NCBI GenBank assembly: GCA_963810275.1 | Contig: CAWENF010000006.1 | Coordinates: forward strand, 1 to 13,200 | DNA: 13,200 nt | Direction: 5' to 3' | Origin: an uncultured archaeon | Lineage (GTDB): Archaea > Thermoproteota > Bathyarchaeia > Bathyarchaeales > Bathycorpusculaceae | Position numbers and translations under genes: made by a program | Shown here: one piece after another, positions 94 through 13,200 of the stretch | How the letters are laid out: every line of letters starts with the position of its first letter | Numbering within the stretch: the first letter of the stretch is position 1 | The notes under the pieces: generated by a model | Seen by the model: only the letters and a program-made list of their open reading frames with translations | Databases searched by the model: none | Told to the model about the DNA's origin: nothing

Positions 94-456
94 TTGGCTT
101 TATGGCAAAAAACTAAAAAAGATATTCTAATAGCGGGTCGTACTGTTGATGAAGTTTATAGTTTTGTTCGGGATTGGTTTAATCAGAATAAAATAGGTGT
201 CATCGAGCACACTATTAACTACATCAAGGGACGCTGGGGAACTGGCTTTTTAACTGCTCCAAAATATTTTCAGGCAACTTTAACTGAAACAGCTGGTGGT
301 GTACTTGCTCAGACAGAAGGTTGGATATCGGTTTATGGTATATCTGATCAAGATTTTTCGCCAAAAGCTATTGGTGGAGGCCTGCCCCGTCGTGAGGGAT
401 GGAGAACTATGGAACGGCTTTGGAGTGCTCTGGAAGGTTTCTCGAAACCATTGTAA
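94..456 (+). CDS. Hypothetical soluble protein, 120 aa, alpha/beta pattern
   Basis: Open frame with protein-like composition, TATA box at leaderless spacing, T-run after the stop. No family recognised. Confidence 0.75.
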   Translation: MALWQKTKKDILIAGRTVDEVYSFVRDWFNQNKIGVIEHTINYIKGRWGTGFLTAPKYFQATLTETAGGVLAQTEGWISVYGISDQDFSPKAIGGGLPRREGWRTMERLWSALEGFSKPL

Positions 457-565
457 TATTTTTCAGTGTGTGTGAGCATCCAAATTTACCAACATATTTG
501 TTATTTTAAGAAACTGTTAGGATAAATGTGTGTGACACAGAGGGAAAAGCAAAGCTATGACTAAG

Positions 566-573
566 TATAAATA
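566..573 (+). promoter_or_regulatory. Archaeal TATA box (TATAAATA) for the gene at 603
   Basis: Consensus TATA about 30-37 nt upstream of ATG 603, with no SD, consistent with a leaderless or short-leader mRNA. Confidence 0.55.
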
Positions 574-602
574 TAGATAATAATTACTAGTCAAATACAA
601 AA

Positions 603-1106
603 ATGGCTCTTTTAAGAAGTAAAGAATTCTTGGCTGCAACAGCAATTATCATAATTACGATTCTTCTGATGATTGCCGATAATCTTCGTTTGATTCATTT
701 TGGATTTTTTGTCGGTCCTTTCCGCGCCAATCACTGGTTTGTATGGATTGGAACCTTATACATCGCAGTATCTGTGCCAATAATAGCTTACTTCAAAAGG
801 CACAAACCAAAAAAGTACTTGACTCTATTTAGAGTTCACGTTTTTGGCAACTTGTTGGCTTTTCTGCTTGTCTCCCTTCATTTTGCAGGGCAAATAAGCA
901 GACCAGCAACAGCCTATCCCGAATTAGGAACCGGACTAGCATTATACATTATCATGATTTTGCTTGTTGCAACAGGTTTTACGCATAGATTCCAGTTACT
1001 TCCTCAGATAAAATCTACAACAAGACGGTTCATTCACATAGCATTAAGTTTTTCGTTTTATATAATAATAGGCATCCATATTTTACATGGATTAGGACTA
1101 CTGTAA
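603..1106 (+). CDS. Ferric-reductase-like / cytochrome b-type transmembrane protein (putative di-haem b)
   Basis: About five hydrophobic helices. Two helices each carry a His pair 14 residues apart (H79/H93 in RVHVFGNLLAFLLVSLH; H145/H159 in FIHIALSFSFYIIIGIH), the pattern of bis-His di-haem membrane cytochromes b. Confidence 0.7.
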   Translation: MALLRSKEFLAATAIIIITILLMIADNLRLIHFGFFVGPFRANHWFVWIGTLYIAVSVPIIAYFKRHKPKKYLTLFRVHVFGNLLAFLLVSLHFAGQISRPATAYPELGTGLALYIIMILLVATGFTHRFQLLPQIKSTTRRFIHIALSFSFYIIIGIHILHGLGLL

Positions 1107-1251
1107 GATCATATAGTGTGTGGGCTTAAATTTTGTCTTGTGTCTACTGGTTTCTGATGTTATAAGTCACGATAAGGAAATATTGAATGTATTCTTAAAA
1201 AAAATAGTTTTCAATAAAAGGGGTTTAGTTGCGGAATATGGGTTGGTTTGT

Positions 1252-1542
1252 TTAACGCCATGCCCAGCATGGACCATACCCATATCCGTAGCCGCCTTGG
1301 TATGGTGCGGGAGCTGGCTGGTTAACAGCGGCTGGGGGCGCTACGTATTGGTCTTGTGCAGTGTTGTAGCCAAAGCAGTTTCCTATCCAGCCCCAGAAGC
1401 CGTTGTTTTGGGCTTGGGTGTTTGGGGTGGTGTTTGTGTAGTATTGGTTTTGGGCTACTTGTGCTGCTGCTGCGACTCCAACCACAGCTAGTGCTAATGC
1501 CGCTATGGCGGCTATTGCGATTATGATTTTTGTGGTTGTCAT
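1252..1542 (-). CDS. Small secreted or membrane-anchored Gly/Tyr/Gln/Pro-rich protein, 96 aa
   Basis: GGTGA SD upstream, N-terminal signal peptide (MTTTKIIIAIAAIAALALAVVGVAAAA), low-complexity body with GFWGWIGNCFG and GGYGYGYGPCWAWR, T-tract downstream on the minus strand (A-run 1197-1204). Confidence 0.8.
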   Translation of the reverse strand: MTTTKIIIAIAAIAALALAVVGVAAAAQVAQNQYYTNTTPNTQAQNNGFWGWIGNCFGYNTAQDQYVAPPAAVNQPAPAPYQGGYGYGYGPCWAWR

Positions 1543-1551
1543 TCTTTCATC

Positions 1552-1569
1552 ACCATATTATAATATGGT
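1552..1569. promoter_or_regulatory. Perfect 18-bp palindrome ACCATATTATAATATGGT, candidate operator
   Basis: Exact inverted repeat 10 nt upstream of the minus-strand start at 1542, within the divergent intergenic region. Confidence 0.6.
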
Positions 1570-1727
1570 AATGGTTTCTTATAGGTGTTTAGGTCAAAAA
1601 ACCAAAAATACACCATCAAAAGTCCATAAAACAAAGGAAATTCGATAATCAGCCGCAAACTGCAGTTAAGATAATAAGCTAACTTATTGGAAGCAAACTT
1701 AAATTTCATAACACAATAGATTTTTCT

Positions 1728-2453
1728 GTGAAACAAAACCAAGTAATTACCCTATTTACTGCTGCAACCTCAATTACGCTACTACTCATAGTCGGAACTT
1801 ACCTGCTACTGAATTCAACCACTACCCAAATGATGGATATGACATCAACCACCACCGACAACAGCGCCATCGCTCTTATTCTAATTTCTGCAGCAATCAT
1901 CATCTCAATAGCTCTGGTTTTGTATTTCTCATTCTCCAAAAAAAAGAAATCTCCAATACCTGAAAAAGACGAAGGGAACATCAGTTGCCCTGCAAACACA
2001 CAACCTATTGAGGAAAAATCCGCTCCAACAGAAATGAAACCTTTTGATGTCTTTTTGTGCTACAAGAAGAGTTCGGGAAAAGATTTTGCCGATCATTTAA
2101 AGACCGGTTTAGAAGAAGTTGGGTTTCACACATTCCAAGATTGCAAAGATATACCCCGAACGGTTAATACTCAAGAAGGCTGGGCTAATTTCCGCGATAA
2201 AGCATTAGAACAAAGCAAATATTTTGTCCTCATAATGACCCCCGGATTCCACTTGTCCTCTGAAGTAGTTAAAGAAATTGGACTAGCTAGAAAGCAACCC
2301 AGTAAAAAATTCATATTTTTTAGGCTTCGAGGGATGAAAAGAAACATTACAATAGATTTAGGAACTGAAATTTTAGATATAGGAAAGTTAGAGCAGGTGT
2401 CTTTTGAGTCCAAAGAGGAATTACTAAGACTTGCCCTAAATATTCTATCTTGA
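1728..2453 (+). CDS. Membrane-anchored TIR-domain protein (2 N-terminal TM helices, C-terminal TIR)
   Basis: TM segments at about aa 6-28 and 47-69 followed by KKKK. TIR signatures: FDVFLCY (box 1), DFADHLKTGLEEVGFHTFQD, ALEQSKYFVLIMTPGF, and SSEVVKEI with the catalytic-position Glu (E183). Confidence 0.85.
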   Translation: MKQNQVITLFTAATSITLLLIVGTYLLLNSTTTQMMDMTSTTTDNSAIALILISAAIIISIALVLYFSFSKKKKSPIPEKDEGNISCPANTQPIEEKSAPTEMKPFDVFLCYKKSSGKDFADHLKTGLEEVGFHTFQDCKDIPRTVNTQEGWANFRDKALEQSKYFVLIMTPGFHLSSEVVKEIGLARKQPSKKFIFFRLRGMKRNITIDLGTEILDIGKLEQVSFESKEELLRLALNILS

Positions 2454-2484
2454 GATCGGCTTGCTTTGAGTTTGCTTAATTTAA

Positions 2485-3939
2485 TTATTCTCTTGGAATC
2501 ACTGCTAAAAATGGTTCAGGCTCCATGTCAGCGGTGGCATAAACCGCAAGTGCTATGCTCCAGAAAACGTCGTCATGGGTACCCGTCGGATGATAAAAGC
2601 CCACGTTGCCGTCTCTTCGCAGTTCATAGCGTTCAACGTTTAGTTCATTGCAGATTTCGCCATGGTAAGGTCGCTCCCAACTCAGCAATGGATAGAAGAA
2701 TTGTTTTGAGAGCATACGCTGCTTTAGCAACCCAGCCATTTCGCTTTTTCTGGGTACACTAAAGTTTACGCCCTCAGCGTTATCTATGTCAGCAGCTTGC
2801 ATGTCAGCGATGAAGCTGGGGCCTTCTCTTGTGAAGTCTACCCGTATTTTTTCAAAGCCGCCCCAGCGGTCCTGTAGCGCTTTTATGTAGCCTAAAACGT
2901 TGGCGTAGACGGTGGGTTGCTGGAATATTTTGATGTGTCTCAGAAGCAGCCGGTCATTTAGGCGTTCTATTACTGAGAAAACAGTGAAATCTCGGGTTTG
3001 GGCTAGATCCAACCCAGCGAAGAATTCTCCTTCTTTTTCAGTTTCGAAGTCGTATATGCGTAGTTGTTGGTTGCAGTTGGCAGCTGTGCCGATGCAGGAA
3101 GCGATTAGGCTTTGGGGCAGCCAGACATCGTCGTCTTCGGCCCAGTCCGCCTCCATTTCTCTTCGCCATCGTGAGAGGTCGTCGCCCATCTGGGTTTTGA
3201 TTCGCTGGATTATGTTTGGTTTGAGTGGACCGGCTGGACTTAGAGCTTTCTGTACTGGTACATAGCTGGTTTTGAAGTCGGCGTAGTCTTTGTGGTTGAA
3301 AATCTTGAAAAATACGCTGTCTGTGTGCCATGGGGTGCTGCTGCAGACGAATTTGCCATCGGTGGTGCCCAACGTATAGAGGATGGCATCATAGAGTTCC
3401 TGGTCGTTAGCTACGAAGTTAAACTCGTCCGCATAGACCACGTGCAATGTAGGGCCTCGGATTGTGTCGGGGTTGTTTGGGTAGGCTTCAATACTGCTGC
3501 CGTTCGTGAATAGGATTTGGGTTCGTTGTGGTTTTAGGGCGTTGTCTGGTGGGAGTTTGTGTGTTAAGGTGGCTATTTGGCTTAAGATGCGTTTTGTTTG
3601 TCGCCATGATGGTCCCACTATGCCTATGGCGCTGTTCGGGTGTGTTGTAGCGTACCATAGTAGCAGTGCGCTTATGATGTAGGTTTTTCCGCTTTGCCGG
3701 CACCATCTGGCTGCGGTGAACTGGTTGTTTTGGAAAAGGTTTGCGAATTCTTTTTGGTAGCTGTATGGTTCGAAACCCATGACTTCTTTAAAGAAGTCGT
3801 TTGGGTTTGTGGAGAGCTCTTTTGTTCGTTGATTAATCTTTTGCTTAAGGTTGTTGTCAGATTGCTGGAGATTACGCCACCGTTCCAGAAGCTGGTTGGG
3901 GCGCATCGTTCTTGCTTCCTTCTTTAAGTAGTTTGGCAT
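2485..3939 (-). CDS. terL: Terminase large subunit (TerL; ATPase plus RNase H-like nuclease). Start may be the ATG at 3906
   Basis: PYSYQ Q-motif, Walker A RQSGKT, IRG, Walker B VVYADEF, coupling motif STP, RREMEADW linker, and nuclease acidic residues in AGLDLA, RDFTV, RVDFT and HDDVFWSIAL. Reading frame intact. Confidence 0.9.
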   Translation of the reverse strand: MPNYLKKEARTMRPNQLLERWRNLQQSDNNLKQKINQRTKELSTNPNDFFKEVMGFEPYSYQKEFANLFQNNQFTAARWCRQSGKTYIISALLLWYATTHPNSAIGIVGPSWRQTKRILSQIATLTHKLPPDNALKPQRTQILFTNGSSIEAYPNNPDTIRGPTLHVVYADEFNFVANDQELYDAILYTLGTTDGKFVCSSTPWHTDSVFFKIFNHKDYADFKTSYVPVQKALSPAGPLKPNIIQRIKTQMGDDLSRWRREMEADWAEDDDVWLPQSLIASCIGTAANCNQQLRIYDFETEKEGEFFAGLDLAQTRDFTVFSVIERLNDRLLLRHIKIFQQPTVYANVLGYIKALQDRWGGFEKIRVDFTREGPSFIADMQAADIDNAEGVNFSVPRKSEMAGLLKQRMLSKQFFYPLLSWERPYHGEICNELNVERYELRRDGNVGFYHPTGTHDDVFWSIALAVYATADMEPEPFLAVIPRE

Positions 3940-4327
3940 TTTGCTCCTCCATGTCTCTTAATTTTGCTTCGATTCCGCAATAATTGACAAAATCCGCTAA
4001 GTGATCTTTGTAAGTTTTAGCAATGTTTGCTATAACTTGGAGTCGCTGAACTTCGAGTTTGTCTAGACCTGGTTTAGTGGCGCTTTTGAGTGCTCCGGCA
4101 AGCATTCGCAAAGTTTCTTCGGGACTGGGAATGTCGTTGGGTAGGGGGATTGTTGTGTCAATGTAGCCTTTGGTTTGGACTCTTAAGCCTAGGCGTTGAC
4201 ATTTTAGTATTATTGCGCCGGGGGTTTTTTGGGTTATTTCGGCGATTTCTTGAAGGTTTTTGTTTGCTTCCACTAGGTTTTTTAGTTCTGTTTCTTGTTG
4301 AGGTGACCATTGTTTGCCTTTTGTCAT
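3872..4327 (-). CDS. HTH (Myb/GcrA-like) plus helical/coiled-coil protein; candidate terminase small subunit
   Basis: N-terminal WSPQQETELKNL...EIAEITQKTPGAIILKCQRLGL HTH pattern and a helical C-terminal half. Lies directly upstream of and overlaps terL. The TerS role is inferred from position and architecture. Confidence 0.65.
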   Translation of the reverse strand: MTKGKQWSPQQETELKNLVEANKNLQEIAEITQKTPGAIILKCQRLGLRVQTKGYIDTTIPLPNDIPSPEETLRMLAGALKSATKPGLDKLEVQRLQVIANIAKTYKDHLADFVNYCGIEAKLRDMEEQNAKLLKEGSKNDAPQPASGTVA

Positions 4328-4350
4328 ATGTGTATTGCTTGTAGCTACGC

Positions 4351-4358
4351 TTATATAA
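4351..4358 (-). promoter_or_regulatory. TATA box (TTATATAA) for the HTH-terL unit, leaderless spacing
   Basis: Palindromic TATA 24-31 nt upstream of the ATG at 4327, in an 87-bp divergent intergenic region. Confidence 0.6.
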
Positions 4359-4414
4359 CAATTAATGTTAATATTTGACTGTGCATAAACATTTACTGTT
4401 AGCGGTGTTAGGAT

Positions 4415-4858
4415 ATGCTTGGCAATTCAATGAGAAAATATGTTATGAGTGAAAAGAAGAACGGCTACAGTAAAGCCGTGCAAGCCGTCTACAATAACCG
4501 AATCAAAAACTATGCAAAACAAGCCATCCAAGACTTAGCATTACTAGCAGAAAAATTGCCTGAAGACCAACAAGCTGACATCTTTAATTGTGAAAACATG
4601 AAGCCATTATTCAAAGCCATCCTAAAACCCAGCATAGAAGAAATCACACAACTTACCCAAAACAAAGAATCGGCAAAAAAGAAAACAAACCGCTTACGTC
4701 CCCTCACCTACCAGATAATAACCCTACTAAACAACTCAGACTTATCACGGTTAATTGCACCCATTGGAACAAGATACATGGTCAGAGAAGGCGGACAGTT
4801 AGCGCATTTAAAGGCGATCTATTATCGCAGCCTAGACGGCCAAGACGATGAAGAATAG
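4415..4858 (+). CDS. Hypothetical helical protein, 147 aa, divergent from the terminase unit
   Basis: Long open frame with amphipathic helices (YNNRIKNYAKQAIQDLALLAEKLPEDQQADIF) and an acidic C-terminus, followed by a T-tract. Confidence 0.8.
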   Translation: MLGNSMRKYVMSEKKNGYSKAVQAVYNNRIKNYAKQAIQDLALLAEKLPEDQQADIFNCENMKPLFKAILKPSIEEITQLTQNKESAKKKTNRLRPLTYQIITLLNNSDLSRLIAPIGTRYMVREGGQLAHLKAIYYRSLDGQDDEE

Positions 4859-4914
4859 CGCAATGGGCGCTGCTTCGCTTAATCTTAAACAATTAAATTC
4901 CGAATAGGCTGTTA

Positions 4915-4928
4915 TTGCTTTCTTTTTT
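4915..4928 (+). terminator. Oligo-T archaeal-type terminator candidate
   Basis: TTGCTTTCTTTTTT about 60 nt after the stop at 4858. Confidence 0.4.
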
Positions 4929-5021
4929 AATATTCAAACATTTACCTGATTTGTAGAGTTACAACCATTGATACCATAATGCCACTCAAGACAAGGAAGT
5001 GGTTGGTATACCCATATGTGG

Positions 5022-5049
5022 GAAAGGGTTTGCTTCAACAAACCTTTTC
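5022..5049. other. Stem-loop with 11-bp stem (one G-U) and 6-nt loop between convergent genes
   Basis: GAAAGGGTTTG-CTTCAA-CAAACCTTTTC read directly. Confidence 0.55.
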
Positions 5050-5102
5050 GGATTCAAGTGGGTCACATGCAGGCAAATCATTTTGATGGATACTTACCAT
5101 AA

Positions 5103-5849
5103 TCAAGGCTCTTTAATCTCTACAGAAGAATTCTCATCAAAAGGATTAATTCTTAATGCTAAAGAGAATAAATAAGGATAATCTCTTTTTAGGTCTCTAA
5201 TATAATCCAACCACTGCAAAATAAGAAGATTATAGACTCTTTTTATGTCATCAGACAAGTGTTTGTAGTCAGACTCAGGCAACAACGAGAAATCATGCCT
5301 ATTATCTAATTCATCAGTCAAATGTAAGATAGCCAAAAGCAAATTTGTAAAAGACTCATGTTCAACTAAATGTGGGTTCTCCAATAATATTAATAAGAAA
5401 TGTCTTTTGCTTTTCAAAAAAGTTCTAACTTCGCCAAGGTCATATCTCTTACTATCTATGATGCCACTAAAATGGAGATTTTGCTTTAAAATTAAAAAAT
5501 CTTTAGTGGACCATTCCCTTTTTACTATAAAGTTCTTTCTGAATTCGTCCACATTAGAATCAAATTTTAAGCATATATTCAACAAGTCAGTACCCACTTC
5601 GCTAAAAAAAGTGTCAATTACTATGTTAAGTTTCTTCAGAACGGATTGTTTCTCCCTGTATACAAGCAAGCGGTTTAAAACCAGTGTCACAATCATGACA
5701 TCTATGAAAAGAAAGGCTATATCACCTATCAAATAGATGAAAATATGGTGCAGATCGCGAAACACTATGTAATGAAATACATAAAAGAACACTGAAAGAG
5801 TCACTAAAATTAGCGCAAGAATTATTTGCCAATTATGAGCTCTTTTCAT
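5103..5849 (-). CDS. Hypothetical membrane protein (2 N-terminal TM helices plus helical soluble domain), 248 aa
   Basis: GGAGA SD upstream, two TM segments, motifs KKLNIVIDTFFSEVG, LLENPHLVEHESFT, LHLTDEL and YPYLFSLALRINPF. Resembles an uncharacterised family recalled from methanogens and anaerobic bacteria. Confidence 0.85.
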   Translation of the reverse strand: MKRAHNWQIILALILVTLSVFFYVFHYIVFRDLHHIFIYLIGDIAFLFIDVMIVTLVLNRLLVYREKQSVLKKLNIVIDTFFSEVGTDLLNICLKFDSNVDEFRKNFIVKREWSTKDFLILKQNLHFSGIIDSKRYDLGEVRTFLKSKRHFLLILLENPHLVEHESFTNLLLAILHLTDELDNRHDFSLLPESDYKHLSDDIKRVYNLLILQWLDYIRDLKRDYPYLFSLALRINPFDENSSVEIKEP

Positions 5850-6227
5850 TTTCAGTCTCCAATATCCTTCTAAAGTTTAACTTATAAATTTAGAGCATAA
5901 AGTCTTTAGCGTCCTCTAAAGTGCATGGAAATATTGGCCATGCAAAGACTGATAGGTTGTTATCAGTCCGTGTGAATTTCGAAGCTTGTGAAGCAGAATT
6001 ATTATTGGCACTAACTTGGCTGTAAATCTTTTTATCAAGAAATTGCTTAATCCAATAACAGGCAAAAACTTGGAATCTTTTGAATTTGCTCTGGTCATCA
6101 TAATGATTCACATCTTATATGAGCGAGTTATATCGAAGCCTCAAGAGAGTGTCCTTTTAAATCTCTATTTAATTCTGGCAGCAGCATAAAATCGTCGCTA
6201 CTCACACTTTCTTAATGTATTGAAAGA

Positions 6228-6431
6228 TTAATTGCCAGTTTTTTCATTTGTTACTTTCTTTATGTTTTCCCACATTTCTTCGTAGGTTCGGTCGCTAGTT
6301 GAATCAGGGAAAAGCTTCTTGTAAGCTAGATTGATGATGGCTGCCGTTGTCATGAGCTCAATAAATGACTCTATTGTTAGTCCTTCAGTTGCATTAGCCA
6401 ATACCTCAATGTACTGCTCTTCTTCACTCAA
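6228..6431 (-). CDS. Small acidic hypothetical protein, 67 aa
   Basis: TTG start preceded by a GAGGT SD-like motif, protein-like helical composition. Short, with no family recognised. Confidence 0.55.
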   Translation of the reverse strand: MSEEEQYIEVLANATEGLTIESFIELMTTAAIINLAYKKLFPDSTSDRTYEEMWENIKKVTNEKTGN

Positions 6432-6700
6432 AGCTTGAACCTCTAACGCTTTCTTGTGGTTTTTACGCTTAAGTGCTTTGCGGGTAGCCCATATGTGCCA
6501 TCTATAAACTTTTTCCGTTCTTTGCCCTAAGAAAGCCCAAATTATTTCTCAATGCGTTTATACAGAGAATGATGAATGTTTGGGTTAGGCTTTAGAACAT
6601 CAGCATTTTTTTGGTATATGTTATTTCTTTTGACATAGAGTTGAAGTCTTTGCTTTCGATATATTATTAAATGCAAACGTCAACTATTCAATTGGTGATT

Positions 6701-6991
6701 ATGTTGATTAGTTTTGAATCAATGATAGGTAAACAAGTTATTGGAAAAGGCGGCTTTATTATTGGAGAAGTTAAGGGTGCAATTATTGATACCAGTTCTT
6801 GGCAGGTACCCACGCTAAATGTAAAGTTATCCGATAATGCTGCAACTGAACTTGGTTTCAAAAAGAGATTTCGCAGTTCCGTTGTTTGCATACCAACAAA
6901 AATGGTTCAAGCCGTAGGTGATGTCATAACAATTGTGCCTCCTCTAAAAGAACTCGCAGAAAGCGAAGAAGTAACTGAATGCAAAACATAA
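6701..6991 (+). CDS. PRC-barrel domain protein (start re-placed at ATG 6701)
   Basis: GGTGA SD at 6694-6698. PRC pattern MIGKQVIGKGGFIIGEVKGAIIDTSSWQV...VCIPTKMVQAVGDVITI. Pyrimidine/T-rich tract after the stop. Confidence 0.85.
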   Translation: MLISFESMIGKQVIGKGGFIIGEVKGAIIDTSSWQVPTLNVKLSDNAATELGFKKRFRSSVVCIPTKMVQAVGDVITIVPPLKELAESEEVTECKT

Positions 6992-7078
6992 AGTTGCTTC
7001 TCTTTTATTATTCCTCTTCTTGATTATCAAATATCTTTTGGCTACAATTAAAGGAACAGAGTTTTTTTATGAAAGTAC

Positions 7079-7096
7079 AGGGGGACTTGACCCCCT
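7079..7096. other. GC-rich hairpin AGGGGG-ACTTGA-CCCCCT in AT-rich intergenic DNA
   Basis: Perfect 6-bp stem with 6-nt loop. Confidence 0.5.
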
Positions 7097-7303
7097 TAAA
7101 GTGGATATATCACCCGAATTTCTTATTTTTCTTTAACAAAGAACAGGAACGAAAGATCTTTTTAGCAATATTAACCTACGAGAACAAATATGAACCAGCC
7201 CCAAGATTTTCGCTGCGTAACTCTTCTTGATTTTACTTTAGCAAAACGTCAAACAATGTTTAAATAGATTTTTAAAGGAAAATTATGATAACTGGCGCTA
7301 ACT

Positions 7304-9220
7304 ATGGAATTTGAATTTATTCTTGTAGCTGTAGCCTCAACGTTAATCCTAATCGACATACTCCTACCCTTATCACCAAGTTTTTTTCGCAAACGATTAA
7401 GCAAATATACACTTGCATTCAGTACGCTGGCCTTCATCCTCATAGTCGGGGCATACATCCAACTGCTATTGGCGTTTGTTAACAATGATTTTTCTTTCTC
7501 AAACGTTTACTCGTTTAGTTCCTCAAATCTACCAATACTATCCAAAGTCTATGCAAGCTGGGCAGGAGCTGGAGGTTCAATGCTTCTACTTTCAATTACT
7601 TTGAGCTTTTTCTATTTCGGCTCAAAGTTAGCAGCGTACAAAAAGCCGGAAAAATTCCAAATCAGCTACAGCCAGATTTTAGGATTTGTAGTTTTAATTT
7701 TCTTAATAGTTACACTACTGCGAAATCCCTTTGAACTCCTTCCCACTGCGGCGGTGGAAGGCTTAGGGCTCAATCCGCAGCTCCAAAGTTTCTGGATGGC
7801 AATTCACCCGCCAATCGTGTTTTCCGCTTATGCCTTTGTGGTTTTAGCCTTTGCTTTGACCGTTGCCAGCTTACGAACCAACCAAGACCTAGAAAAGAAC
7901 ATTCTTTTCAAAATCTCTACATATGCCGCGTGGATTCTTCTAACAATTGGAATAGCATTGGGGGGCGTATGGGCGTATGCCGTTTTAGGGTGGGGCGGAT
8001 ACTGGGCCTGGGATCCAGTTGAAACCGCGTCACTTCTACCTTGGCTTCTACTTACAGGATATTTCTTAACTCGGACGCTATCAAAACACAAAACGAGTCT
8101 AACCCAAGAAACAATGATTATGCTAACTTTTGCCAGCCTTGTATTCCTCAGCGCCTTAACTCGAGGGGGCTTAACGCAGTCTGTCCACTCATACGCAACC
8201 TCCGCCATAGGCCCAGTTATGCTTTCCTTCGCAGCAATCATGGTGGGTTTATTCTTTTTCTTTGCTAGGGGCAAAAAGAAGCCTTTCTTTAAACTCGAAA
8301 CTAAGAGGACCTCGCTGGTTTCCCGGTCGAGTTATGTTGCTTTTCTGGCGTTAACCCTAATATCAATCGTCTGTTTAGTGGGATTGGCTTTTAGCGATTT
8401 CCCTTACAGCTACTTAACGTATCCGTTTGTTCTGTTGTTTGTTATATCCCTGGTTGGTTTTAGCTTAGATGACAAAACCCATTATGCCAGGCAGTTCCTA
8501 ATCGTTGTTGCCTCGATAATTGTAGGTGTAGGACTCTCTGTGGCAGGGGTGTTCTCGGTTAACATCTTGCTGACTTTGACTACTCCATTGTTTGCAGTGG
8601 TGTTTGCTTTGATGCTTTATCGCATTGTTAAGTCTGCGAGAAGAAAAACGATGCTTTGGCAGCGCCTCTTTGGATTGGCGGTTATAGTTATGCTGATTGG
8701 CGTGTTTGTGAGCGCAGGGGCAAAAACTTCCCAAACAATAACCGATGTAAAATCTAACATTCCCACAGAAGCACTGGATATGACTTTAGAAATAAGTAAC
8801 CTCAAAGTCGTAAACGCAACCTCAGAAGTTTACAGTCCCCAAGCCCAAAGCGTGCTTCCCCAGTACTCAGCAGTCACCGCAGACATAACCATCAAGCAAT
8901 CAGGCGCTACCTATGCTGGCGAAATTTCTGCCAGTTTTTACCCAAATTACGGCTTAGCATTGACACCTCTAATAATTAGCACGGCAACTGGCGACCTATA
9001 TGTGCATATGGAAATCGACCAAGAACTCTACGATATCTTAACCGCTCAACTTACGGGAAATAGCACTACCCCTACCGTAGTGTCATTGACCGCCCAGAAT
9101 ATCCCACTGGTTTACTTAGTCTGGGTAGGTGTCACTTTGATGGTTGCTTCAATGATGATAGAGTTTGTGGTTGATTTGCGTCAAACCCGCCGTCAGCAGC
9201 TTATGGTCAGCCAAAGCTAA
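7304..9220 (+). CDS. ccmF: Cytochrome c maturation protein CcmF/NrfE family (System I haem lyase)
   Basis: NDFS, WAGAGGSMLL, GLNPQLQ...IHPP, WWD domain WAYAVLGWGGYWAWDPVETASLLPW, TRGG...SVHSY, many TM helices, extracellular C-terminal domain and final PLVYLVWVG helix. TTTAAATA at 7259-7266 upstream. Confidence 0.92.
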   Translation: MEFEFILVAVASTLILIDILLPLSPSFFRKRLSKYTLAFSTLAFILIVGAYIQLLLAFVNNDFSFSNVYSFSSSNLPILSKVYASWAGAGGSMLLLSITLSFFYFGSKLAAYKKPEKFQISYSQILGFVVLIFLIVTLLRNPFELLPTAAVEGLGLNPQLQSFWMAIHPPIVFSAYAFVVLAFALTVASLRTNQDLEKNILFKISTYAAWILLTIGIALGGVWAYAVLGWGGYWAWDPVETASLLPWLLLTGYFLTRTLSKHKTSLTQETMIMLTFASLVFLSALTRGGLTQSVHSYATSAIGPVMLSFAAIMVGLFFFFARGKKKPFFKLETKRTSLVSRSSYVAFLALTLISIVCLVGLAFSDFPYSYLTYPFVLLFVISLVGFSLDDKTHYARQFLIVVASIIVGVGLSVAGVFSVNILLTLTTPLFAVVFALMLYRIVKSARRKTMLWQRLFGLAVIVMLIGVFVSAGAKTSQTITDVKSNIPTEALDMTLEISNLKVVNATSEVYSPQAQSVLPQYSAVTADITIKQSGATYAGEISASFYPNYGLALTPLIISTATGDLYVHMEIDQELYDILTAQLTGNSTTPTVVSLTAQNIPLVYLVWVGVTLMVASMMIEFVVDLRQTRRQQLMVSQS

Positions 9221-9647
9221 TGTGCAAAAGATAGTACAAGATGCCCAAGGTCAAAGAGAGCAGCCAAAACGATAGGATTTTCCACATGGTCTTTTTTCTA
9301 GGGGCGCAGTAGGCGGTGCTGCTGTTCTCGTTTATCGCCCAGATCCACAAAAGCCATACGCCTAAGACAACAGCGACTACTCCGATTATTCCGTGTATAA
9401 CTCCTGACAATGCTACAAAATCAAACGTTAACACTAATTCAGAGACTGCTTCAACAAACGATGGCCCCATGTGGGCAATTAATAGTAGCACTGTGATTAA
9501 CATGACTACTATCATAGAGTTTCCGTGCCAAACCCATTTGCGCTTTCTCTCCAAGTACAGGCTTAAGCCAATTAGGCATAACGCAGCAACAAATAGGATG
9601 ATGTTTGCCTCTGCCATCCATTCATGAACTACCTCGTAAGTAACCAT
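9207..9647 (-). CDS. DUF420 / CtaM(YozB)-like 4-TM membrane protein
   Basis: Four TM helices, KRKWVWHGNSM, VIHGIIG and C-terminal WLLSLTLGILYY patterns, GGAGAG SD. Divergent from ccoN and overlaps the ccmF 3' end by 14 nt. Confidence 0.7.
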   Translation of the reverse strand: MVTYEVVHEWMAEANIILFVAALCLIGLSLYLERKRKWVWHGNSMIVVMLITVLLLIAHMGPSFVEAVSELVLTFDFVALSGVIHGIIGVVAVVLGVWLLWIWAINENSSTAYCAPRKKTMWKILSFWLLSLTLGILYYLLHISFG

Positions 9648-9679
9648 GCGCTCTCCAAGTATCTAATGTAGGGAACAGG

Positions 9680-9740
9680 AATTTTTAAAAATTTCTAAAA
9701 AACAGGTCTCTAACGATGCCAAATTGAAAAAATTTAATAA
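9680..9740. promoter_or_regulatory. Divergent archaeal promoter region for the DUF420 gene and the cco operon
   Basis: Palindrome AATTTTTAAAAATT at 9680-9693 (TATA-like for the minus-strand gene). Purine-rich BRE GAAAAAA followed by TTTAATAA at 9733-9740 upstream of ccoN. Confidence 0.55.
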
Positions 9741-9782
9741 ACCCTACCTACAAGCTAGTTAGCGGAGTTAAAGGTTGTTTTT

Positions 9783-11222
9783 ATGCCGATCGAACAAGAT
9801 AGCGCTAAAGCTGATGATAAGGACAATAATTCTTTTGATTTAAAAACGGGCGACTCTGTTGTAAAATACTGGTGGTACTCAGCCATTTTATGGTTCCCAA
9901 TTTTCACCATTTTCGGCATGATAATGGCTATAAAGTTTTTTTATCCAACCTTCATGATTGATGCCGCCTGGGAAACCTTTGGCCGAATACGACCTGCACA
10001 CGTAAACGGTTTGCTCTTCGGATTCTTATCTTCAGGCTTAATCGGCGCAATGTACTACGTAACACCAAGGCTAAGTCATAGATCCCTTTTCCAACCTCTA
10101 ATTGGCAAAATTTCTGCGGTCCTATGGAACGGCGCCGTCTTATCGGGAGTACTTCTCATCTTAAGCGGCAACACACAAGCACGTGAATACGCCGAAATGC
10201 CTTGGGTAATAGACATTTTAGTCCTGACAACCCTCATATTAATTGGCATAACAATCATTGGAACCATTCTCAAACGTCGAGAACGCAAACTCTACGTCAG
10301 CCTCTGGTTTTTCGCTGCTATATTTCTCTGGTTCCCCATCGTTTACTTCATAGGAAACGTAGTGTGGAACCCGCCGTCAGGTGCGCTTTTTGGATTAACA
10401 GACGCCATAGTCAACTGGTTCTATGGCCATAACGTTTTGGGTCTCTGGTTCACACCTTTTGGTTTAGCTCTGTGGTACTATTTCATACCTAAACTCTCAA
10501 AGAGAGCCCTCTACAGCGTTACTCTTTCGTTAATCAGCTTCTTTGCATTAGCCTTCTTTTACACTGGCGTAGGAGGACATCATCTTCTTCAGTCTTCGAT
10601 TCCAGAGTGGCTTAAGACAATCGCAGTTGCAACCAGTGGACTGATGATGCTTTCAGTTTTAACCTTCGCCACAAACATTGGCATGACACTTCGTGGCGCA
10701 TGGAAAGAAATCATGAGCAACGTGCCGCTAAGGTTTATCGTTTTTGGCTTCGTTTGCTACATATTCGTTTCGATACAGGGAACCTTCCAAGCCCTAAGAG
10801 ACATGAACCTTTACCTACATTATTCACAATGGACCGTGATGCACTCTCACCTTTCTCTTTATGCGTCGTTTGGCATCACAATCATGGGCATGATGTTTTG
10901 GGCGCTTCCAAAAATTATTCAAAAACCTCTTTACAGCAAAAAACTCATGGATGTAACCTGGTGGGTATCTCTACTCGGCTTCGTAATCTTTATGTTAGGC
11001 ATGATGCTAGCTGGTTTAGTGGCCAATGCTAACTGGTTCACTCACCAAACAATCGCCCAAGCCCTACCAACATTAGAACCCTACTTCGTGATCAGAGCGA
11101 TAGGCGGAGGCATAGTTGTAGTTTCAGCCTTCCTCTTCGCAATAAACATTATTATGACCATTATTTCAAAAAGAAAAATTCCCCCTATGATTGAAGACAC
11201 ATCAGAGGTGCAGCAACAATGA
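9783..11222 (+). CDS. ccoN: cbb3-type (C-family) haem-copper oxidase subunit I
   Basis: About 12 TM helices. TFGRIRPAH (H73), REYAE, LYVSLW, NWFYGHN (H216), YYFIPK, YTGVGGHH (helix VII Tyr260, H266/H267), LHYSQWTVMHSH (H354/H356). All six His ligands and the C-family cross-link Tyr are present. Confidence 0.93.
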   Translation: MPIEQDSAKADDKDNNSFDLKTGDSVVKYWWYSAILWFPIFTIFGMIMAIKFFYPTFMIDAAWETFGRIRPAHVNGLLFGFLSSGLIGAMYYVTPRLSHRSLFQPLIGKISAVLWNGAVLSGVLLILSGNTQAREYAEMPWVIDILVLTTLILIGITIIGTILKRRERKLYVSLWFFAAIFLWFPIVYFIGNVVWNPPSGALFGLTDAIVNWFYGHNVLGLWFTPFGLALWYYFIPKLSKRALYSVTLSLISFFALAFFYTGVGGHHLLQSSIPEWLKTIAVATSGLMMLSVLTFATNIGMTLRGAWKEIMSNVPLRFIVFGFVCYIFVSIQGTFQALRDMNLYLHYSQWTVMHSHLSLYASFGITIMGMMFWALPKIIQKPLYSKKLMDVTWWVSLLGFVIFMLGMMLAGLVANANWFTHQTIAQALPTLEPYFVIRAIGGGIVVVSAFLFAINIIMTIISKRKIPPMIEDTSEVQQQ

Positions 11223-12808
11223 GCAACTTCGAGAAGAAACTCGAGCATAAACTAGAAAAAATCGAAAACACAGCCAATAAACAAATTAAAACTATGAGCA
11301 AAAAAACCACGATAAGAAACCTTTTTCCTATTGCCGCTGGTGGGTTAGCAGTATTTCTGCTGATGGTCAGCATGGTTGTTGTTGCTCCTTACATGTTTCT
11401 GCTTGATGTTCCAGCGTCCGATACTGCTCACCCTTACACCACACAAGAGCAGGAAGGCAGAACGCTTTTCATGAGTTTGGGCTGCTTCTACTGTCACTCC
11501 CAGCAGGTTCGTGAAGCTGACTGGGGGTTAGGTAATGTTTCCCAAGAAGGTGATTACGTCTACGATAGTCCAAACGCTTTAGGCACAGAACGTACCGGAC
11601 CGGATTTAGCCCAGATAGGTGGTATGCGGCCTTCAATTTGGCATCACCTCCATGATCGTGATCCCCGTAGTGTCAGCCCTGGCTCAATTATGCCTAACTT
11701 TAAGTTCTTAACTGACGACCAAATCGATGCATTAACTGCTTACATCCAGAATCTAGGGCAAGAAAACCTCCAAGTGCAGCAGTCAGTCACCAACGGCTCG
11801 GCATTTCACCCAGTTGTTCCTGAAAATTACCTTAATGTATCTAACCAGTTCGGCCCAATCTACATGACTGCGCTATCAGAGTACGATGCAGAAAATGACG
11901 TGTTCAACGGAAACCAGTCCCTTGCAGACCAGTGGGCAGCAATCTACAACACTGCCAAAGCAGACTATACTGCGCGTTGCCTGCCGTGTCATGGATGCTC
12001 AGGAAACGCTCAGGGACCCTACGCCCGCCATGTTGTTACTCAACCAGCTAACTTACACGAACGAATAGCAACATTCCCCGGCGACAATTACCACATCTGG
12101 CGTGTTACTGAAGGAGTACCCGGCACAGCAATGCCTGCATGGGGATTAACACTTAATGATACACAAATTCAAATGATTGCAGTTTACGAAATGAGCTTTG
12201 TTTTTGGCTCAGCCAGAACAATCGATGGCGCAATCTCTGATATGGAAGGCGACGCTTTTGCCCAGTCAACCCTAAATTCTCCACCAATTGCTGGCACGCA
12301 GCAAGAGTTCCAGAAAGGCAGTGACCTCTTTACCTTGTACTGTGCCCAATGTCACGGCACGGATGGACAAGGAGATGGTCCTGCCTCCGGCGAAGTTTCG
12401 GGGGGCTACATTGTGCCTGTTCCAGCGAACTTTACCGAATCGGGAAGTGACTTTGAAATGTATGGCAGATACGTCTGGAAAGTTAAGGAAGGTGTAGAAA
12501 CAACAAATATGCCACCATGGAAAAACGCTTTGACTAACGATGAAATCTATCAGGTCGTATTCTTCATTCAGAGCTTTGCTACCCCGCAGGATTATAACGC
12601 AAAGTGGGGTCCACAATACAGCGATCCATTTGCCAAAAATCTGAAACTCAACCAGTCAAGCATATCCACAAACCCAGCTGCAGCCTTGGTTCTTTTAGCT
12701 GCAATTGTGTTGTGGGAGAAAAAGTTAAGCCGCCAAACAAACCTTTTCAAATACGTCAATAATAAGAAGCTAATCCATAAAATTGGTTTGTGGAGGTGTA
12801 ATCATTGA
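11219..12808 (+). CDS. ccoO: cbb3 oxidase subunit II (CcoO) fused to two further class I cytochrome c domains; three CxxCH, N- and C-terminal hydrophobic anchors
   Basis: CcoO motifs GCFYCHSQQVR, LGTERTGPDLA, PRSVSPGSIMP, then CLPCH...AMPAW and CAQCH...NMPPW. ATGA overlap with ccoN and a GAGGTG SD. Confidence 0.9.
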   Translation: MSNFEKKLEHKLEKIENTANKQIKTMSKKTTIRNLFPIAAGGLAVFLLMVSMVVVAPYMFLLDVPASDTAHPYTTQEQEGRTLFMSLGCFYCHSQQVREADWGLGNVSQEGDYVYDSPNALGTERTGPDLAQIGGMRPSIWHHLHDRDPRSVSPGSIMPNFKFLTDDQIDALTAYIQNLGQENLQVQQSVTNGSAFHPVVPENYLNVSNQFGPIYMTALSEYDAENDVFNGNQSLADQWAAIYNTAKADYTARCLPCHGCSGNAQGPYARHVVTQPANLHERIATFPGDNYHIWRVTEGVPGTAMPAWGLTLNDTQIQMIAVYEMSFVFGSARTIDGAISDMEGDAFAQSTLNSPPIAGTQQEFQKGSDLFTLYCAQCHGTDGQGDGPASGEVSGGYIVPVPANFTESGSDFEMYGRYVWKVKEGVETTNMPPWKNALTNDEIYQVVFFIQSFATPQDYNAKWGPQYSDPFAKNLKLNQSSISTNPAAALVLLAAIVLWEKKLSRQTNLFKYVNNKKLIHKIGLWRCNH

Positions 12809-12954
12809 ATTTTGACTTGCTAATTTACTCCATCGGTGCTTTGATGATTACAATGATTACCGCCGGTTTTGTGATTTGGGCGTTTAAAACTAAACAGTTT
12901 GAAGCTAACGATTTTCTCCGCTACTACCCCTTAGAGGAGGATGAAGAACAATGA
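12805..12954 (+). CDS. ccoS: cbb3 oxidase assembly protein CcoS/FixS-like, 49 aa (not in ORF track)
   Basis: Manual translation MNFDLLIYSIGALMITMITAGFVIWAFKTKQFEANDFLRYYPLEEDEEQ. One TM, a WAxKxxQF motif and an acidic tail. GGAGGTG SD at 12792-12798 and TTGA overlap with the upstream stop. Confidence 0.8.
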   Translation: MNFDLLIYSIGALMITMITAGFVIWAFKTKQFEANDFLRYYPLEEDEEQ

Positions 12955-13200
12955 GTTTTGTCGTAAGAATAGTGGAGTTATCCGCCAACGACGTGTATTT
13001 AGCCTTGTTCCTTATTGCTGCTGTTATAATAGCCATTGCTTTAATTGTTAGAAGCTCAGACGAGTACTCTGTAAAAAAGACTCAGGATAACTCTGAGGAA
13101 TTCGCTGGAGAAATCCGCGACTCCAAAGGTCCAGTAACTAAGTGGCTTTGGGTAGCCTACATTGTTCTGATTATTTGGGCAGTTGCGTATTTGGCCCAGC
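12951..13200 (+). CDS. CcoP/FixP N-terminal membrane domain-like protein, 3'-truncated by the window (not in ORF track)
   Basis: Manual translation MSFVVRIVELSANDVYLALFLIAAVIIAIALIVRSSDEYSVKKTQDNSEEFAGEIRDSKGPVTKWLWVAYIVLIIWAVAYLAQ. TM-loop-TM layout resembling CcoP FDGIEEYDNPLPRWW...Y. GAGGAGG SD and ATGA overlap with ccoS. Confidence 0.7.
   Translation, partial: MSFVVRIVELSANDVYLALFLIAAVIIAIALIVRSSDEYSVKKTQDNSEEFAGEIRDSKGPVTKWLWVAYIVLIIWAVAYLAQ

Follow-up and report, generated by a model that had tools for sequence, protein, structure and literature searches.

The window analysed here, the whole stretch of 13,200 nucleotides (nt) that constitutes contig CAWENF010000006.1 of an uncultured archaeon (assembly GCA_963810275.1; Bathyarchaeia, Bathycorpusculaceae), carries at positions 7304-13200 a six-gene module composed of a ccmF-like gene, a DUF420-like gene, ccoN, a ccoO-ccoP fusion, a gene for 49 amino acids (aa) and a FixP_N-like gene. 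We consider it likely that this module represents a genuine cassette in the chromosomes of Bathyarchaeia from soils and wetlands, which combines a C-family (cbb3-type) haem-copper O2 reductase with its own haem-attachment enzyme. An earlier note on this DNA had named these genes, and all of them were located within this interval. In the following, G000 designates the genome to which the window belongs, C6 the contig that equals the whole window and C2 the 222-kb contig of the same genome.

A scan for ccoN loci with one genome per species yielded 49 loci, 21 of which encode CcoN at 71-91% identity. All 21 of these contain the ccmF-like gene, the DUF420-like gene and ccoN, and all 19 loci that reach past ccoN contain the three genes downstream of it. 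In genome G106 the whole module occurs twice, near 1.46 and 2.27 Mb on C14, a single contig of 2.47 Mb (loci L023 and L030); both copies contain frame breaks in ccoN and/or the ccoO-ccoP fusion, maybe owing to long-read errors or decay.

The Predicted Oxygen Reductase

The gene ccoN (9783-11222, plus strand) encodes a protein of 479 aa that matches COX1 with 266.4 bits and, when compared with all solved structures, finds its best partners in the CcoN chains of cbb3 oxidases (227 and 222 bits), with 48 bits for subunit I of the ba3 oxidase and 32 bits for NorB. The residues H73, H216, H266, H267, H354 and H356 align with the ligand histidines of solved cbb3 CcoN, while Y260, located six residues ahead of the HH pair, aligns with the helix-VII tyrosine of 9G6B chain A ('LYIWAGPHH'). 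Across 21 Bathyarchaeia orthologues, none of these seven residues varies, which confirms the description of the six ligands and the tyrosine given in the earlier note. The profile TIGR00780 is matched with 274.5 bits and CtaD with 46.2. From its sequence, subunit I is predicted to be a C-family (cbb3-type) haem-copper O2 reductase; it would carry haem b, haem b3 and CuB together with the cross-link tyrosine.

An identity of subunit I as a nitric oxide (NO) reductase, or as some other enzyme of the C-family branch that does not act on oxygen, deserves consideration at this point, as NO at high concentration is reduced in vitro by C-family enzymes, from which the NO reductase families arose (Murali 2024). 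Yet the comparison with NO reductases that the earlier note had proposed places subunit I on the side of CcoN, as the bit scores given above illustrate, and the three CuB histidines are retained together with the active-site tyrosine. The newly described non-O2 families (NOD, a putative N2O reductase, eNOR, sNOR, nNOR as well as gNOR) do not possess this tyrosine according to the available text of Murali 2024. We regard it as very improbable that subunit I is anything other than an O2 reductase of this kind.

The second oxidase gene (11219-12808, plus strand; 529 aa) is a fusion of ccoO and ccoP. Its product combines a FixO domain (PF02433, 117.5 bits against a cut-off of 29.6) with two class-I cytochrome c domains and contains three CXXCH motifs, CFYCH at residue 89 within the FixO domain, CLPCH at 254 and CAQCH at 375. 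The protein starts with an N-terminal membrane anchor and has a hydrophobic segment close to its C-terminus (residues 480-498). The ccoO fusion reported earlier is thus specified as FixO plus two cytochrome c domains, and electrons would enter the enzyme via this membrane-anchored tri-haem subunit, comprising CcoO and the two haem c domains of CcoP.

Two small genes follow. The first one (12805-12954, plus strand) encodes a single-helix protein of 49 aa, for which the earlier note proposed the name ccoS. A small gene is indeed present, and FixS (CcoS) and FixQ (CcoQ) fit it about equally well: the protein scores 15.1 bits with FixQ (E 0.022) and 14.4 bits with FixS (E 0.033), both under the respective cut-offs. 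Among 40 proteins that were scanned, 18 of them of the 49-aa type, 15 match FixS (PF03597; best E 2.5e-8) and 13 match FixQ (PF05545; best E 4.7e-7). The gene order of bacterial operons is ccoNOQP, in which ccoQ takes the position that the 49-aa gene has here. The second gene (12951 to 13200, plus strand) is cut by the contig end with a loss of about 11 last codons; its missing 3' end is present in a deletion scar on C2, which is described further below. It encodes a FixP_N-like two-helix protein, corresponding to the membrane domain of CcoP on its own, so that the CcoP-like membrane piece of the earlier note is present. The matches to FixP_N (PF14715; 23.0 and 23.6 bits) fall just short of the cut-off of 24.9, the orthologues have a length of 94-101 aa, and the motif is strongly conserved in 20 sequences. 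The CcoP membrane part and the CcoQ/CcoS-like peptide would act as separate small subunits or as assembly factors.

In comparison with the bacterial cbb3 enzyme CcoNOQP (3MK7/5DJQ, 9G6B, 6XKW), the module shares the six histidines and the helix-VII tyrosine of subunit I, a FixO-type mono-haem part with two more haem c domains, a small single-helix peptide and the FixP_N membrane domain. In contrast to the bacterial enzyme, CcoO and the di-haem part of CcoP form one polypeptide with an extra C-terminal hydrophobic segment, FixP_N is a separate protein of about 94 aa, no ccoGHI was seen within the window, and the host is an archaeon. A fusion of CcoO to a cytochrome c domain is also known from the 'bifunctional subunit II/cytochrome c' variants of NF011054 (Melainabacteria, Armatimonadota, Coriobacteriia, Hydrothermarchaeota), which possess the nearest CcoN outside Bathyarchaeia (39-43% identity). 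These relatives have a di-haem CcoO fusion and, in most cases, a second di-haem protein, whereas Bathyarchaeia have one tri-haem protein. No ccmF-like or DUF420-like neighbour was found at 28 loci of near relatives outside Bathyarchaeia. Judging from the gene sequences, the combination of a tri-haem CcoO-CcoP protein with a stand-alone FixP_N would be a new subunit arrangement.

Host, Distribution and Phylogeny

The host of the module is an archaeon, and the module is not a contaminant. The small-subunit ribosomal RNA of G000 scores 1489 bits on the archaeal and 1090 bits on the bacterial model, and the records of all 21 loci mentioned above are titled Candidatus Bathyarchaeota, Bathyarchaeia or uncultured archaeon; the archaeal affiliation proposed in the earlier note is borne out by both. 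The G000 assembly comprises 2.26 Mb in 28 contigs with a contamination of 4.45%, and C6 is short (13.2 kb) and has the lowest G+C content of the bin, which could be taken as signs of a mis-binned bacterial contig or a chimera, the outcome against which the earlier note had cautioned. However, the module also occurs in records of whole Bathyarchaeia or archaeal chromosomes (two module-bearing records of 2.68 and 2.94 Mb are labelled as such), the 222-kb contig C2 holds a copy of the flank with 95% identity along with the deletion scar, and the closest bacterial CcoN is just 43% identical. Low-depth coverage of both window halves is moreover provided by public contigs from four runs of three studies; one of them bridges positions 7171-7543, and none spans the whole window. 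As far as present data go, mis-binning is already refuted, and the chance that C6 is bacterial or chimeric appears minute.

Of the 120 genomes of the genus, 16 were found to encode CcoN (14 among the 73 high-quality ones), and a sample of 401 genomes from the class yielded 11 with CcoN, which represent five of 131 genera. The carriers are mostly contiguous assemblies of 1-40 contigs, and short-read bins may therefore miss the module region. The phylogeny recommended by the earlier note was built from 46 CcoN rows, with nine of 53 loci left out for lack of a full-length open reading frame (ORF). The 22 Bathyarchaeia rows form one group of their own with a support of 92 in the SH-like approximate likelihood-ratio test (SH-aLRT; not starred) and a stem of 0.92. 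A row of Hydrothermarchaeota and another archaeal row constitute a separate starred pair amid Elusimicrobiota and Bacillota, and the nearest bacterial sequences, from Coriobacteriia, Melainabacteria and Armatimonadota, are 39-43% identical. The root of this tree is unreliable because the branch of the A-family outgroup has a length of 10, which invites long-branch joins. A recent transfer of CcoN from bacteria, as implied by the word 'acquired' in the earlier note, is not supported by these sequences, which point to a separate clade with a long stem and at most 43% identity to bacterial CcoN. The statement that C-family enzymes are essentially bacterial is to be modified, since a sparse presence in Archaea had already been noted (Murali 2024).

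The CcmF-Like Protein and Cytochrome c Maturation

The first gene of the module (7304-9220, plus strand) encodes a CcmF-like haem lyase of 638 aa. It matches PF01578 with 104.8 bits, well above the cut-off of 29.9, reaches 172.9 bits with TIGR00353, which is under the cut-off of 569, and aligns with the CcmF structure 6ZMQ over residues 39-317 (133.9 bits); the ccmF gene proposed earlier is accordingly present. The WWD motif (WGGYWAWDPVE, from residue 230) and the histidines P-His1 (H168) and P-His2 (H295) are retained, align with 6ZMQ and are invariant in 115 sequences; H568 and C357 are invariant as well. The columns of the two transmembrane histidines (TM-His1 and TM-His2), in contrast, are occupied by L255 and G457, although histidine is found there in 93% of 118 CcmF representatives. 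In CcmF, this histidine pair holds a transmembrane haem b, which has been proposed as the reductant of the outer haem, and holoCcmE acts as the haem donor (mBio 2023). The CcmF-type WWD protein of the module retains the outer haem site and has dispensed with the transmembrane haem-b ligands. In a single locus, L079 (G472:C13, 4386-7916), the CcmF-like frame continues into an amino acid permease to give one ORF of 1176 aa, which may be a fusion or an assembly error.

The gene is tightly linked to the oxidase. A full-length ccmF-like gene occurs in all 16 genus genomes that bear CcoN and in none of the 104 others; three further genomes contain weak partial matches to another WWD gene. A shorter gene of the PF01578 type is present in three genus genomes without the oxidase. 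No protein of G000 other than the tri-haem subunit matches PF13442 or PF00034, and this subunit is also the only ORF with at least two CXXCH motifs among 4254 ORFs of at least 80 aa. Likewise, every PF00034 match lies within the ccoO-ccoP gene in 15 of the 16 genomes, the locus of the sixteenth being cut by a contig end.

The search of the genome for ccmABCE that the earlier note had suggested did not reveal such a system. CcmE was not found in any of the 16 module-bearing genomes, with positive controls that included Methanosarcina, and ResB was likewise not detected in any of the 16. A second gene of the PF01578 family (CcmC/CcmF/CcsA) was not found in eight of them, G000 included. Of the expectation that the oxidase is accompanied by cytochrome c maturation, there remains that one maturation gene travels with the oxidase; this is a single atypical CcmF-like gene and not a Ccm system. 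We cautiously propose, at somewhat less than an even chance, that the sole c-type cytochrome of these cells is made by a single CcmF that has shed its haem-b site and needs neither CcmE, CcmC nor CcmAB. In such a scheme, the CcmF-like protein would load haem on the three CXXCH motifs of the cell's only c-type cytochrome without the CcmABCDE relay.

Genome G228, which belongs to a different family and whose CcoN is 62% identical, offers an informative comparison. Its ccmF retains both TM-His residues and is located beside a CcmC-sized PF01578 protein, CcmE, an ABC ATPase (ccmA), CcmB, TatC and TatA; this maturation set (L078, G228:C13:13000-31000, 104-9745) adjoins DUF420-like, FixP_N-like, ccoO-ccoP and ccoN genes. 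Among five genomes of other genera that were searched, G228 is the only one with CcmE. As G228 has both the haem-b ligands and CcmABCE and neither was found in the module genomes of the genus, the loss of the ligands goes together with the failure to find these partners.

The module may also be real without haem attachment being autonomous, in which case the CcmF-like protein would need partners encoded elsewhere in the genome that have diverged strongly or escaped recognition; an ABC exporter, an analogue of CcmE, a second PF01578-type protein or the DUF420-like protein as a haem carrier are examples. CcmB is matched weakly (23-32 bits) in all 16 genomes, and eight of the 16 contain a second, shorter PF01578-type gene (ORFs of 140-390 aa; e.g., G014:C1:115118-115483 and G116:C15:33493-33855), that of G105 being under the cut-off; unrecognised helpers are possible because of these two findings, which count against autonomy. 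Yet the CcmB matches reside in ORFs of about 395 aa that are distant from the module and cover only positions 40-167 of the profile, and Thermotoga was positive in the control as well; in the other eight genomes, no second PF01578 gene was found. In Methanosarcina, the CcmABCEF set is both required and enough (Gupta 2022), which favours a need for partners, as does the constant company of the DUF420-like protein with its conserved histidines. The zero count for CcmE despite the positive archaeal control and the loss of both TM-His in genomes where CcmABCE was not found argue in the opposite direction. Altogether, we consider a dependence on hidden partners doubtful. Whether the CcmF-like protein would act alone or alternatively together with the DUF420-like protein appears about evenly balanced from the sequences.

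System I is the sole type of cytochrome c maturation reported for Archaea in the available text of Kletzin 2015. The streamlined System I of Methanosarcina acetivorans, CcmABCEF, shares with the module genomes a CcmF-type WWD protein with P-His1 and P-His2; the module genomes differ in that the searches returned neither CcmE nor CcmC nor a credible CcmB, and in the loss of the TM-His. With regard to its ligand set (WWD motif, P-His1 and P-His2, no TM-His), the protein resembles CcmC, and with regard to its presumed task, one protein that would both deliver and attach haem, it resembles CcsBA (role of CcsBA: mBio 2023). Unlike these two, it is CcmF/NrfE-like in its length of 638 aa and its full-length profile match, and it has no ResB/CcsB part. 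A literature search aimed at this question revealed no report of a natural CcmF that works without CcmE.

The DUF420-Like Protein

The DUF420-like gene (9207-9647, minus strand) encodes a four-helix membrane protein of 146 aa. The gene announced by the earlier note is present at this position, with a family score under the Pfam cut-off (PF04238, 18.5 bits against 30.5; E 0.0026). Among the same 40 scanned proteins, of which 22 belong to the DUF420-like family, 14 match DUF420 at E<=1, with a best E of 4.4e-6. An alignment of 22 orthologues shows H41, H59 and H85 to be invariant and H142 and C114 to be nearly so. The structure model has four helices at a predicted local distance difference test (pLDDT) score of 86.8, and DUF420 is found on 28-32% of the members among its Atlas neighbours. 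A Foldseek search of the model against the Protein Data Bank (PDB) returned nothing at E<=0.001; the highest-ranking entries were bo3 and aa3 oxidase subunits III with E values of 0.7-5, which provide a lead only. A complex prediction of the protein with CcoN gave no verdict (score 0.00). The protein is best treated as a distant relative of DUF420.

DUF420, or CtaM, is a factor needed for the function of the aa3 oxidase in Firmicutes. The module protein resembles it in being a small membrane protein of four helices, in having a haem-copper oxidase gene as its neighbour and in its weak DUF420 matches; it differs in that it stays below the Pfam cut-off and is encoded next to a cbb3 and not an aa3 enzyme. 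A role as an assembly factor, as that of CtaM for aa3 oxidases, may be envisaged.

Promoter Regions

The earlier note placed all genes under TATA/BRE-type promoters. We searched 18 orthologous loci for the sequence TTTAAATA with at most one mismatch between -75 and -16 of the start codon. In the window, a TATA-like box TTTAAATA is located at 7259-7266 on the plus strand, 45 nt 5' of the start codon of the ccmF-like gene. Upstream of ccmF, a TATA box was detected in 15 of the 18 loci at a distance of 26-56 nt from the gene; the controls gave 180 hits in 720 shuffles and 8 in 180 coding windows. Upstream of ccoN, it was detected in nine of the 18 loci, and the window itself has two mismatches there. 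The divergent intergenic region between the DUF420-like gene and ccoN (9648-9782) is A+T-rich and contains TATA-like stretches. As a putative promoter element, the motif is conserved 5' of ccmF and weaker 5' of ccoN.

Flank, Deletion Scar and Mobility

The region upstream of the module (544-7073), with genes for a TIR protein, a terminase, a D5-like helix-turn-helix (HTH) protein and a PRC-barrel protein, recurs on C2 at 93.5-95.7% identity. After this flank copy comes a 45-bp remnant of ccmF (window 8215-8259), which passes directly into the 3' portion of the FixP_N gene (from window position 13021 on; 97% identity, one base lost). As the flank copy is followed by a ccmF remnant fused to the FixP_N part, C2 carries a deletion scar of the module, and C6 is the intact version of the C2 locus, either from a sister strain or as a second copy within G000. 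The flank copy and scar region (C2 128765-136742) contains two inserts without a counterpart in the window, one with a PAS/GAF histidine kinase and one with a PLD-like gene. A desulfoferrodoxin-type superoxide reductase is encoded about 2 kb downstream of the scar (G000:C2:138828-139256; L087 16828-17256).

Within the flank, positions 1728-2453 (plus strand) encode a protein of 241 aa that combines a TIR domain (43 bits) with a membrane part, the latter weakly matching cation-efflux proteins; the gene may serve in defence. Next come an intact terminase large subunit (2485-3939, minus strand; phrog_2, 121.7 bits) and the D5-like HTH protein (3872-4327, minus strand). This pair has relatives of 45-52% identity on four viral contigs, a copy with 95% identity on C2 and one with 74% identity at the end of C21, with no other recognisable virus genes alongside.

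Carriage of the module as auxiliary metabolic genes by a virus or another mobile element, and not as a chromosomal trait, would fit the terminase 3.4 kb upstream and its relatives on viral contigs, the terminase fragments near the module in L024, the two copies in G106 and the flanks, which largely differ between module-bearing genomes. Yet C2 keeps the terminase flank although the module is deleted there, and besides the terminase and the D5-like HTH protein no PHROG family of known function was found for the other eight flank ORFs. No viral contig matched the CcoN patterns, so that a virus-borne module was rejected, and a tRNA-linked integration was discarded as well since any tRNA lies beside the module in just three of 18 sources and is a different one in each. 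A PQQ-propeller gene, furthermore, recurs beside the module in six loci and also downstream of the C2 scar. Mobile cargo consequently appears unlikely. In the chromosomal cassette that we favour, the module would be part of the flexible genome and readily lost.

Physiology and Possible Electron Donors

G000 keeps the oxygen-sensitive acetyl-CoA synthase CdhC (216 bits), which makes an anaerobic background plausible for the genus; isocitrate lyase was not matched in this genome. Besides cbb3, G000 possesses an A-family operon (G000:C21:68555-73894; L075 2556-7895) of cupredoxin, COX2, COX1, COX3, cupredoxin and a UbiA-type prenyltransferase, which shares contig C21 with the 16S rRNA gene. Among the 120 genus genomes, 33 encode an A-family subunit I and the two oxidase types are nearly exclusive, with cbb3 only in 13, A-type only in 30, both in three (G000, G106 and G112) and neither in 74. 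Cytochrome bd was not found in any of five genomes searched. The cupredoxins of the A-family operon are candidate electron donors, solely in the three genomes with both oxidases.

A genus of (micro)aerobic soil Bathyarchaeia with cytochrome c oxidases, 'Houtuousia', has been described (Hou 2023). Both cases concern soil Bathyarchaeia with haem-copper oxidases for which a (micro)aerobic life is proposed. 'Houtuousia' is without the Wood-Ljungdahl pathway and with the glyoxylate cycle, whereas G000 has CdhC and no isocitrate lyase match; an identity of the present genus with 'Houtuousia' was rejected for these reasons. The available portion of Hou 2023 makes no mention of a cbb3 enzyme. The earlier characterisation of the host as normally anaerobic is thus plausible in view of CdhC, and it is to be qualified by the known (micro)aerobic soil genus and by the A-family oxidase of G000. 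We suggest that an otherwise anaerobic archaeon with acetyl-CoA synthase probably consumes traces of O2, be it in microaerobic respiration or in O2 scavenging.

Several observations speak against the interpretation as a functional chromosomal cassette. The check for a bc-type electron donor proposed in the earlier note was negative, as the bc-type cytochrome b (PF00033) was found in none of the 16 genomes, the Rieske matches do not lie within bc-like loci, and no other cytochrome c was found as a donor in G000 or, by PF00034, in 15 of the 16 genomes. CcoN and CcoO stay under the NCBIfam equivalog cut-offs (274.5 against 583 for TIGR00780, a curators' threshold and not a structural feature, and 102.4 against 200.65), for which reason the Bathyarchaeia CcoN clade must be regarded as divergent. 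Frame breaks affect several module copies in long-read genomes and reflect either sequencing errors or decay. The low G+C content of C6 (0.414) and the completeness of G000 (92.6%) belong here too. C6 possibly derives from a sister strain with an identity of about 95% to the strain behind the module-deleted C2. Finally, no RNA runs are listed among the sequencing runs that hold the stretch.

Implications

The oxidase type itself is not new, since C-family enzymes are already known in Archaea and aerobic soil Bathyarchaeia with A-type oxidases have been described. Our literature searches brought up no description of a cbb3 enzyme from Bathyarchaeia, though supplementary tables may list such genes; where the available text of related papers mentions cbb3, the mention is unspecific or refers to other organisms. 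The reduced maturation system is the newer point. If our reading holds, a one-protein descendant of System I would constitute a further route of cytochrome c maturation, and the cbb3 oxidase would represent an oxygen module that is self-sufficient, portable and readily lost, in archaea otherwise without cytochrome c. A lineage with ccmFCEAB next to relatives that possess only a CcmF lacking the haem-b histidines would provide a natural experiment for cytochrome c biogenesis. The distinct archaeal C-family clade with its new subunit arrangement is relevant to the debate on how old the C family is and where it originated. For the biology of these archaea, a high-affinity oxidase in a minority of species, near a superoxide reductase, would mark populations that are able to use or remove traces of O2, which matters for carbon turnover at oxic-anoxic interfaces.

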